Assembly: GCF_003334255.1 (NCBI RefSeq)
Contig: NZ_QOWU01000184.1
Direction: 5' to 3' (one strand)
Length of the DNA: 876 nt
From: Escherichia coli
GTDB lineage: Bacteria; Pseudomonadota; Gammaproteobacteria; Enterobacterales; Enterobacteriaceae
The notes beneath the pieces are model-generated. The model did not search any database and was not told the DNA's origin. It saw nothing but the letters and a program-made list of their open reading frames with translations. Position numbers and translations under genes: made by a program. Positions within the stretch are counted from its first letter, which is position 1; each line of letters begins with the position of its first letter. Positions 25 through 876 of the stretch are shown here, piece after piece.

Positions 25-534
25 GTGGCTACGCAGACTGAAGTTGCCAGGCATTTAAGTCTGACCGATCGCCAGCTTCGCAGATTGCAGAAATTGCCGG
101 GTGCCCCGATATCGAATAAGCGAGGGCAACTGGATCTGGATGCCTGGCGCGATTTTTACATATCGTATCTGAGAAGAAGTAAAAACGATGTGCCTGATGG
201 CGATAGCGAAGACGACTATGAGGAGAAATTGCTTATTGCCAGATGGGAACTGACAGCAGAACAGGCTGTTACACAGCAGTTAAAAAATGAGGTGTCAAAA
301 GGAAAACTTATTGATACCGGGTTCTGTATTTTTGCCCTCAGCAAGCTGGCAATGGCGTTATCCAGTACGCTTGATTCCATCCCTTTATCCATGCAGCGAC
401 AGTTTCCTGATTTAACACCGCGCCATCTTGACCATCTGAAAACCCTTATTGCGAAGGGGGCAAATCAGTGTGCGCGGGCGGGGGATAAATTACCGGATTT
501 ACTCGATGAATATATCAGAGCAACAACTGAATAA
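25..534 (+). CDS. nu1: Phage terminase small subunit, lambda Nu1-like (DNA-recognition subunit for cos packaging), 169 aa, apparently complete
   Basis: Open frame from GTG at 25 to TAA at 532-534, bounded upstream by an in-frame TGA at 19-21. The N-terminus (TQTEVARHLSLTDRQLRRLQ) resembles the lambda Nu1 helix-turn-helix region as I recall it. The C-terminal half (TGFCIFALSKLAMALSSTLDSIPLSMQRQFPDLTPRHLDHLK ... LPDLLDEYI) closely matches recalled lambda Nu1 (TAFCTFVLSRIAGEIASILDGLPLSVQRRFPELENRHVDFLK ... IPGLLSEYI). A lambda gpA-like gene follows immediately and overlaps it, which is the lambda arrangement. SD-like GAGGTGA lies upstream of the GTG. Confidence 0.93.
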   Translation: MATQTEVARHLSLTDRQLRRLQKLPGAPISNKRGQLDLDAWRDFYISYLRRSKNDVPDGDSEDDYEEKLLIARWELTAEQAVTQQLKNEVSKGKLIDTGFCIFALSKLAMALSSTLDSIPLSMQRQFPDLTPRHLDHLKTLIAKGANQCARAGDKLPDLLDEYIRATTE

Positions 535-876
535 TATGATGAGTGCTGTCACAACAGCATTACAGCCCCTGATAAGGGCATTGCCGGTGACGCCAGTTGA
601 ATGGGCTGATCAAAATTATTATCTGCCTAAAGAATCTTCATATGGTGAGGGAGAATGGAAAACGCTGCCGTTCCAGATCGCCATCATGAACAGCATGGGG
701 AATGATCAGATCCGGACTGTTAATCTGATTAAATCTGCCCGTGTTGGCTATACAAAGATGTTGCTGGGGGTGGTCGGGTATTTTATTGAGCATAAATCCC
801 GAAACAGTCTGCTTTTTCAGCCCACGGATTCTGCCGCTGAAGATTTTATGAAGTCTCACGTGGAGGCGACGATTCG
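506..876 (+). CDS. A: Phage terminase large subunit, lambda gpA-like, N-terminal fragment (123 codons plus 2 nt; continues past the window end)
   Basis: Frame 2 is open from the TGA at 437-439 to the window end, with ATG at 506. My translation is MNISEQQLNNMMSAVTTALQPLIRALPVTPVEWADQNYYLPKESSYGEGEWKTLPFQIAIMNSMGNDQIRTVNLIKSARVGYTKMLLGVVGYFIEHKSRNSLLFQPTDSAAEDFMKSHVEATI. It aligns without gaps to recalled lambda gpA (MNIS...AVEWADANYYLPKESAYQEGRWETLPFQRAIMNAMGSDYIREVNVVKSARVGYSKMLLGV...FIEHKQRNTLIWLPTDGDAENFMKTHVEPTI), including the identical MNIS start. This ORF is absent from the supplied track because it has no stop in the window. Confidence 0.92.
   Translation, partial: MNISEQQLNNMMSAVTTALQPLIRALPVTPVEWADQNYYLPKESSYGEGEWKTLPFQIAIMNSMGNDQIRTVNLIKSARVGYTKMLLGVVGYFIEHKSRNSLLFQPTDSAAEDFMKSHVEATI

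Follow-up and report, generated by a model that had tools for sequence, protein, structure and literature searches.

Results

The window holds two overlapping terminase genes

The window, by which we mean the whole 876-nt stretch of DNA that was analysed, carries two genes on the plus strand, encoding the small terminase subunit (TerS) and then the large one (TerL), with 24 nt ahead of the TerS start, the side on which a lambda-like terminase has its cos site (cosN/cosB) (Table 1). The TerS protein ends in ...KTLIAKGANQCARAGDKLPDLLDEYIRATTE (aa 139-169, from translation of ORF 25-534), and TerL begins at the ATG at position 506 with MNISEQQLNNMMSAVTTALQPLIRALPV... (from translation). A preliminary description of this DNA had given these coordinates and had stated that nt 506-534 are read in two frames. 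Both statements are correct: TerS occupies 25-534, TerL starts at 506 and 29 nt are common to the two genes. Of 168 related loci, 137 have an overlap of 26 or 29 nt, and in 160 the TerL start precedes the VEWA motif by 30 codons. The CCGGA at 493..497 codes for the TerS 'LP(D/E/G)' motif; it may in addition act as a weak Shine-Dalgarno sequence for the TerL gene. An Rfam search of the window returned no match, so no RNA element accounts for the region.

Table 1. Features of the window, with coordinates in nt from its first position
Feature	Position	Strand	Basis
TerS gene (small terminase subunit, Nu1-like)	25..534	+	ORF of 169 aa with GTG start; Pfam and PHROG matches; same CDS annotated in PhiR12_1
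TerS N-terminal DNA-binding region, non-lambda type (MATQTEVARHLSLTDRQLRRL...)	25..200	+	No lambda Nu1 similarity before aa 73; phrog_7289 match at aa 2-90
TerS C-terminal 40 aa (aa 130-169)	412..534	+	Second helix of predicted hairpin; gap-free alignment with lambda Nu1 C-terminus, 41% identity
CCGGA, conserved CCGG(A/G)G-type element	493..497	+	8-13 nt 5' of the TerL start; junction alignment of 60 distinct loci
TerL gene (large terminase subunit, gpA-like), first 123 codons	506..876	+	Translation and PHROG matches; runs past the window end
Out-of-frame TerS/TerL overlap, 29 nt	506..534	+	TerS ...DEYIRATTE* / TerL MNISEQQLN...
TerL N-terminal amphipathic alpha-helix, aa 5-22, presumed to dock on TerS	518..571	+	AF2 helix in both models; conserved hydrophobic stripe
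Mosaic patch, 52 nt, TerL aa 13-30; occurs as two diverged alleles, with the TerS gene ahead of it unchanged	542..593	+	Window compared with related locus L020
TerL aa 29-48 (TPVEWADQNYYLPKESSYGE), lead-in to the ATPase domain	590..649	+	Family conservation 0.72; Pfam GpA_ATPase from aa 48

TerS matches Pfam Phage_Nu1 (PF07471) over aa 49-150 (E=1.4e-18, model positions 62-163 of 164), as well as phrog_1790 and phrog_57, both 'terminase small subunit'. TerL matches phrog_4145 and phrog_15, both 'terminase large subunit', and its full-length orthologue in PhiR12_1 contains GpA_ATPase (aa 48-293, E=7.5e-55) and GpA_nuclease (aa 323-601, E=7.6e-71). Neither TerS nor TerL has a match in NCBIfam. 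A sequence search of the PDB with TerS and TerL 1-123 found no relatives, and hence no template for the interface between the two proteins. The DNA-binding domain of TerS is not of the lambda type: the Phage_Nu1 match leaves out model positions 1-61, and no lambda similarity was detected in the N-terminal part of the protein, the tblastn match to lambda covering only aa 73-164. The fold of this domain could still be a helix-turn-helix. The same DNA-binding type is found in the TerS proteins of Pseudomonas LPPA33, Aeromonas phiARM81ld and E. coli 705R4; in three close relatives of the window (L019, L027 and L028), an N15-type domain takes its place. Judged by sequence, every tested feature save the TerS DNA-binding domain is that of the Nu1/gpA family.

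The gene pair is widespread. The plaque-forming, ECOR-derived phages PhiR12_1 to PhiR12_5 have a terminase 99.5% identical to the window at the nucleotide level, with both CDSs annotated. The entire window occurs with 100% identity in many E. coli chromosomes, and RefSeq E. coli genomes have the same gene calls. We found the junction in 1,293 of 5,426 complete E. coli genomes, with up to five such junctions in each. The window is a very common and already annotated E. coli prophage terminase.

Divergence from lambda at the predicted interface is one-sided

The preliminary description had assigned nt 412-649 to the holoenzyme interface, on the ground that the last ~40 residues of Nu1 bind the first ~48 residues of gpA in lambda; the figure of 48 residues reportedly goes back to Frackman et al. 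1985 and Wu et al. 1988. In lambda, work with lambda/21 chimeras, C-terminal truncations and protease sensitivity has located the TerL-binding, or specificity, domain in the last ~40 aa of TerS and the site of TerS binding at the N-terminus of TerL (PMC9026076, PMC4669245). The lambda TerS2:TerL1 protomer has also been modelled with AlphaFold; in the published model, the C-termini of the TerS dimer form a four-helix bundle that holds the TerL N-terminal helix (PMC10810279). The window proteins are clear homologues of Nu1 and gpA, so by analogy with this literature and the published model (PMC9026076, PMC4669245, PMC10810279) the assignment appears sound, and TerS aa 130-169 would by homology be the TerL-binding domain.

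It had also been proposed that the TerS tail and the TerL N-terminus diverge from lambda together, between flanks that are much more conserved. We observed such divergence in TerL, where aa 5-28 are identical to lambda at 7 of 24 positions (29%), compared with 69 of 95 (73%) for aa 29-123 (Fisher p=2e-4); against phage 21, the corresponding values are 8 of 24 (33%) and 79 of 95 (83%; p=4e-6). For the TerS tail the proposal does not hold. Its aa 130-169 match lambda at 16 of 39 positions (41%), against 26 of 57 (46%) in the core (aa 73-129; p=0.68), and match phage 21 at 16 of 40 positions, against 22 of 57 in the core (p=1); comparisons with PhiR5_1 and N15 agree. Likewise, a much more conserved flank is present on the 3' (TerL) side only, the TerS DNA-binding domain having no detectable similarity to lambda. 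Nor does divergence run through the whole of 412-649, given that TerL aa 29-48 (nt 590-649) are among the best conserved stretches, scoring 0.72 compared with 0.45 for aa 10-28.

The clearest co-variation between the subunits lies in dual-coded codons

Joint divergence had been read as co-variation of a subunit-specific interface. On this account, the interface is partner-specific and co-evolves by compensatory substitutions, so that tail type is matched to helix type and mismatched pairs fail as they do between lambda and 21. The lambda/21 genetics that set the specificity domains at these very termini (PMC9026076, PMC4669245) speak for it, and distinct types of TerS tail mostly accompany distinct types of TerL N-terminus. 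We aligned the window with lambda, 21, phi80, N15, PhiR5_1, the Pseudomonas and Aeromonas relatives and 160 IMG/VR loci. The resulting paired set comprised 165 TerS/TerL pairs, of which 108 are non-identical, with ~48 effective sequences, a depth at which a residue-level test of co-variation has low power.

We compared segment distance matrices of 65 representatives by Mantel correlation. The TerS tail (aa 130-160) and TerL aa 10-28 are correlated at r=0.70, which is not above the other segment pairs (0.61-0.79): r is 0.79 for TerS core and TerS tail, 0.75 for TerS core and TerL body, and 0.68 for TerS core and TerL aa 10-28. With both flanks controlled, a partial correlation of r=0.34 (p<0.001) remains between the TerS tail and the TerL N-terminus, compared with 0.17 between the TerL N-terminus and TerL body and 0.50 between TerS core and tail. 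This residual association means that some co-adaptation of TerS tail and TerL helix is possible. However, the two segments are contiguous DNA, so linkage alone predicts an association and the partial correlation is not separable from it. These data suggest that the TerS tail and TerL helix tend to be passed on as a unit.

Residue-level co-variation was scored as mutual information with average product correction (MI-APC). The strongest inter-subunit pairs are S165-L5, S169-L9, S168-L8, S163-L3 and S162-L2, where S and L denote TerS and TerL residues; in each of these pairs, the two codons have two overlap nucleotides in common. Pairs within the overlap account for 9 of the top 100, versus 0.7 expected, whereas pairs of TerS tail and TerL N-terminus beyond the overlap account for 5 of the top 100, versus 4.9 expected, which is chance level for the 108 non-identical pairs. 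Since the top co-varying pairs are all dual-coded codons, the clear co-variation is a mechanical effect of dual coding. Mean MI-APC for the block of TerS tail and TerL N-terminus is slightly positive (0.013, versus -0.004 to -0.02 for other inter-subunit blocks), in the direction that partner-specific co-evolution predicts.

In this alignment, variability in the TerS tail does not exceed that in the remainder of TerS, the core included, and at the depth available we detected no correlated substitutions beyond the dual-coded codons. Tests for TerS/TerL co-evolution must mask these nine codons and allow for the contiguity of the two segments, or else the signal is an artefact. We also tried counting type combinations at thresholds of 70-90%. 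The tail/helix junction was the most re-assorted at 70% and 80% (excess of 5 and 7, versus 0-4 for the other segment pairs) and was tied at 90%; a segment of 19 aa is too short for robust thresholds, and we therefore used these counts qualitatively only.

Natural variants uncouple the TerS tail from the TerL helix

The related locus L020 differs from the window at 4 positions in nt 1-541, at 22 positions in nt 542-593, and at none in nt 594-669. The differences within 542-593 alter eight TerL residues (S13A, T16S, T17V, I23V, A25V, L26V, V28M and P30A), and TerS is identical. For TerL codons 10-28, where the patch lies, the comparison gives pN=0.21 and pS=0.83. On this pattern of sequence differences, we interpret 542-593 as a recombination patch. 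Among complete E. coli genomes, the window allele was found in 1,066 records and the alternative allele in 202, at an identity of at least 95%; E. coli O145:H28 RM13516 is an example genome for the patch alleles. A third, intermediate variant of the patch also exists.

Many E. coli genomes pair an identical TerS tail with TerL N-terminal helices that differ at 8 of 19 positions. Uncoupling is also seen in the other direction, one Gifsy-type TerL helix occurring in identical form with TerS tails that have 10 differences in 31 positions. The lambda-type TerS tail is joined to six TerL N-terminal clusters (<80% identity). With these uncoupled variants, and with a residue signal at chance level outside the dual-coded codons, the claim that a subunit-specific interface co-varies here is not demonstrated, and we regard co-evolution of matched partners by compensatory substitutions as unlikely, though it is the strongest of the alternatives that we weighed. 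Whole specificity types may nevertheless have co-evolved by compensation at the interface. Variants with identical TerS and swapped residues in the TerL helix are ready material for mapping the positions that determine partner specificity.

The conservation step in TerL reflects a change in constraint

Similarity to 21 and lambda in blastn searches begins only at nt 588-591. Scored across the family, conservation rises from 0.40 in the TerS tail, 0.45 in TerL aa 10-28 and 0.48 in the TerS core to 0.70 in TerL aa 29-123. We contrasted pN and pS and set dN/dS aside, because synonymous sites are mostly saturated and the ratios are unreliable; TerS values for lambda and for one related locus (L050) were discarded, as a one-codon offset had mis-registered them. 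Against PhiR5_1, phage 21 and two further loci (L041 and L032), pN is 0.18-0.51 in the TerS core, TerS tail and TerL aa 10-28 and ~0.09 in TerL aa 29-123, whereas pS is 0.54-1.0 across all segments, and 0.54-0.85 in the TerL body. Since pS is near saturation in every segment, the step at nt ~588 represents a change in protein constraint rather than a difference in age or a recent mosaic junction.

These values bear on a second alternative, that nt ~412-588 were imported as one recombined block from a different terminase lineage. The abrupt onset of blastn similarity would fit such an import, and relatives of the window are clearly mosaic, as seen in the 542-593 patch, in the DNA-binding-domain swaps described above, and in five loci (L071, L073, L077, L081 and L093) that have their own TerS tail and TerL N-terminus on a lambda/phi80-like TerL body. 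However, there is no divergence step at nt 412, the whole homologous part of TerS being about equally diverged, and synonymous sites in the TerL body are themselves near saturation (pS of 0.54 versus 21 and 0.72 versus PhiR5_1), which marks the 588 boundary as a change in constraint. We consider import of a single block improbable.

The TerL N-terminus is predicted to form an amphipathic helix

When TerL was modelled alone with AF2, aa 5-22 formed a helix with pLDDT 83-92. The helix has a conserved hydrophobic stripe (L8, M11, V15, L19 and L22), and the opposite, polar face is hypervariable; helical-moment permutation gave p=0.003-0.01. L19 and P27 are invariant in the family, and L22 is 92% conserved. 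In TerS, AF2 predicts helices at aa 99-126 and aa 132-169, with pLDDT 80-87 in their centre, and the C-terminal helix is amphipathic. We also modelled a fused construct consisting of two copies of TerS 98-169, linkers and TerL 1-60, using a paired alignment of 29 rows. Judged on pTM (0.56) and pLDDT alone, this model gave no support for docking, the TerL helix scoring ~70 when fused, versus 83-92 alone.

A third alternative, in which TerL aa 1-28 are a leader or linker under little constraint, play no specific part in docking and leave the TerS tail to bind TerL elsewhere, is very improbable: low conservation of the TerL N-terminus (0.36-0.45), tolerance of the eight-residue swap by the helix and the lack of a pLDDT gain on fusion to TerS would agree with it, but the spacing from start to VEWA is almost constant, L19 and P27 are invariant, L22 is largely conserved and the hydrophobic periodicity is significant, the helix is predicted with high confidence, and lambda genetics and the published model put TerS binding at the TerL N-terminus (PMC9026076, PMC10810279). 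From the modelled helix, we infer a generic hydrophobic dock, in which any specificity would come from peripheral polar positions.

Discussion

The window is probably an ordinary junction, or holoenzyme module, of a lambda-family cos terminase, whose divergence stems mostly from weak constraint, linkage and shared nucleotides. The last 40 residues of TerS would be the second helix of a C-terminal hairpin, and the first 48 residues of TerL would comprise an amphipathic helix (aa 5-22), a proline-containing turn and a conserved lead-in to the ATPase domain. As in the homologous terminases of lambda and phage 21, the two segments would together form a holoenzyme-assembly module, in which the TerL N-terminal helix docks on the helical bundle made by the C-termini of the TerS dimer, and docking would tether the ATPase/nuclease to the DNA-recognition subunit. 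For the window pair itself, analogy with lambda suggests both physical docking and partner specificity.

The apparent joint divergence of the two segments would then have three ordinary causes. First, purifying selection on both is much weaker than on the ATPase domain, retaining only the hydrophobic stripe and a few anchors. Second, both are contiguous DNA and are usually inherited together. Third, the two genes read nine codons each from one and the same set of nucleotides.

A more speculative idea is that the patch alleles and the fast-evolving polar face of the helix are maintained to tune or insulate TerS-TerL pairing, which would make the helix an 'orthogonality' determinant and not a neutral tether. 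Since an E. coli genome can hold up to five such junctions, lambda-like prophages resident in the same genome, or satellites that hijack TerS (PICI Rpp proteins), could supply such pressure. We give this idea little credence next to the reading as an ordinary lambda-family module.

Specificity domains at the TerS C-terminus and TerL N-terminus have been known since the 1980s, and the window is one further natural type. It combines a DNA-binding domain unlike that of lambda with a TerS tail and a TerL helix of its own type and with a TerL body that resembles that of 21. Its significance beyond annotation is small.

Among known terminases, the TerL-binding C-terminal tails of P22 and T4 TerS belong to 8-12-mer rings with beta-barrel C-termini, unlike the window TerS. 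Lambda Nu1/gpA shares with the window the operon layout, a TerL start 30 codons before VEWA and an overlap of the genes in different frames, which measures 26 nt in lambda as against 29 nt in the window; the two are 46% identical in the TerS core, 41% in the tail and 73% in TerL 29-123. The TerS C-terminal helices and TerL N-terminal helix of the published lambda model likewise recur in the AF2 predictions for the window. In contrast to lambda, the window TerS has a DNA-binding domain of another type, TerL aa 5-28 are only 29% identical, and TerL starts with ATG instead of the GTG of lambda. Within the TerL helix, A18 and P21 of the window depart from the family, which has G (93%) at the first of these positions and A/G/S at the second.

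Phage 21 gp1/gp2, the classical alternative specificity to lambda, has the TerL body closest to that of the window (83% aa identity, and 81.5% nt identity from nt 588) and an overlap of the same length, 29 nt. However, the window is as distant from 21 as from lambda in its TerS tail (40%) and TerL 5-28 (33%), and the junction sequences differ, with 'GGWIDDFRR / MISDAQK' in 21 and 'DLLDEYIRA / MNISEQQ' in the window. The nearest distinct type in the phage collection is that of Escherichia phage PhiR5_1. Its DNA is alignable with the window over nt 310-865 at 72% identity. PhiR5_1 differs from the window in having a DNA-binding domain of the lambda/21 type and in being only 42% identical over TerL 10-28, but its tail and junction are similar to those described here (DSIPLSMQRQFP..., LP.(M/L)LDEY; MN(I/T)SE(Q/K)QLNN).

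The TerS-TerL junction

The genes for the small (TerS) and large (TerL) terminase subunits overlap out of frame by 29 nt in the window. In three Pseudomonas phages, LPPA33, U8 and PAN70, we identified an in-frame start upstream of the annotated TerL start, positioned 30 codons (U8 and PAN70) or 31 codons (LPPA33) before the VEWA motif, and use of this start restores the 29-nt overlap typical of the family. The TerL N-terminal helix, presumed to dock TerS, has probably been cut off by database annotation in these phages. Overlaps of 38, 47 or 17 nt were detected among Pseudomonas-type IMG/VR loci (L102-L124 and L127-L133). 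These other lengths arise because the TerS C-terminus is extended; the distance from the TerL start to VEWA remains 30-32 codons.

In addition to encoding the TerS LP(G/E/D) motif, a conserved element of the CCGG(A/G)G type precedes the TerL start by 8-13 nt. Ribosomes may bind here to translate TerL, which would add a constraint beyond dual coding.

Within the TerL helix region, a 52-nt patch carries 22 substitutions between the window and a related locus, L020, in prophages that are otherwise near-identical. Complete E. coli genomes contain two major patch alleles and one intermediate, with a median of one and a maximum of five copies of the terminase junction per genome. We also observed a 5'-truncated pseudogene of the window-type TerS adjoining an ISEc8 (IS66-family) transposase in E. 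coli strain 272, indicating that this prophage terminase copy is defective.

Coordinates of features at the terminase loci
Feature	Location	Remark
TerS N-terminal DNA-binding region, non-lambda type	window 25-200	phrog_7289 match
CCGG(A/G)G-type element	window 493-497	conserved at equivalent position in 60 related junctions
52-nt patch	window 542-593; L020 1453-1504	TerL aa 13-30
TerL starts in question, Pseudomonas phages	L008 (LPPA33) 664; L011 (U8) 1787; L014 (PAN70) 527	
Reference Gifsy-1 TerS	L005 (NC_010392) 1255-1771	164 aa
TerS pseudogene and ISEc8 transposase	L176 (E. coli strain 272, NZ_CP018239) 1-545	

Comparison with other TerS proteins

TerS in the Gifsy-1 reference does not overlap TerL, the two genes being separated by a 21-nt gap. 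In Gifsy-like IMG/VR loci (L047-L049), by contrast, TerS is 181 aa long and overlaps TerL by the usual 29 nt, a difference suggesting that the Gifsy-1 reference contains a frameshift or a sequencing error.

The N-terminal region of the window TerS (aa 2-90) matches a PHROG family annotated as "unknown function" (E=2.7e-60), and is common to TerS of Pseudomonas phage LPPA33, Aeromonas phiARM81ld and E. coli 705R4. Three close relatives (L019, L027 and L028) instead carry an N15-type DNA-binding domain on the same window-like TerS core and tail. Thus, the DNA-recognition domain has been exchanged independently.
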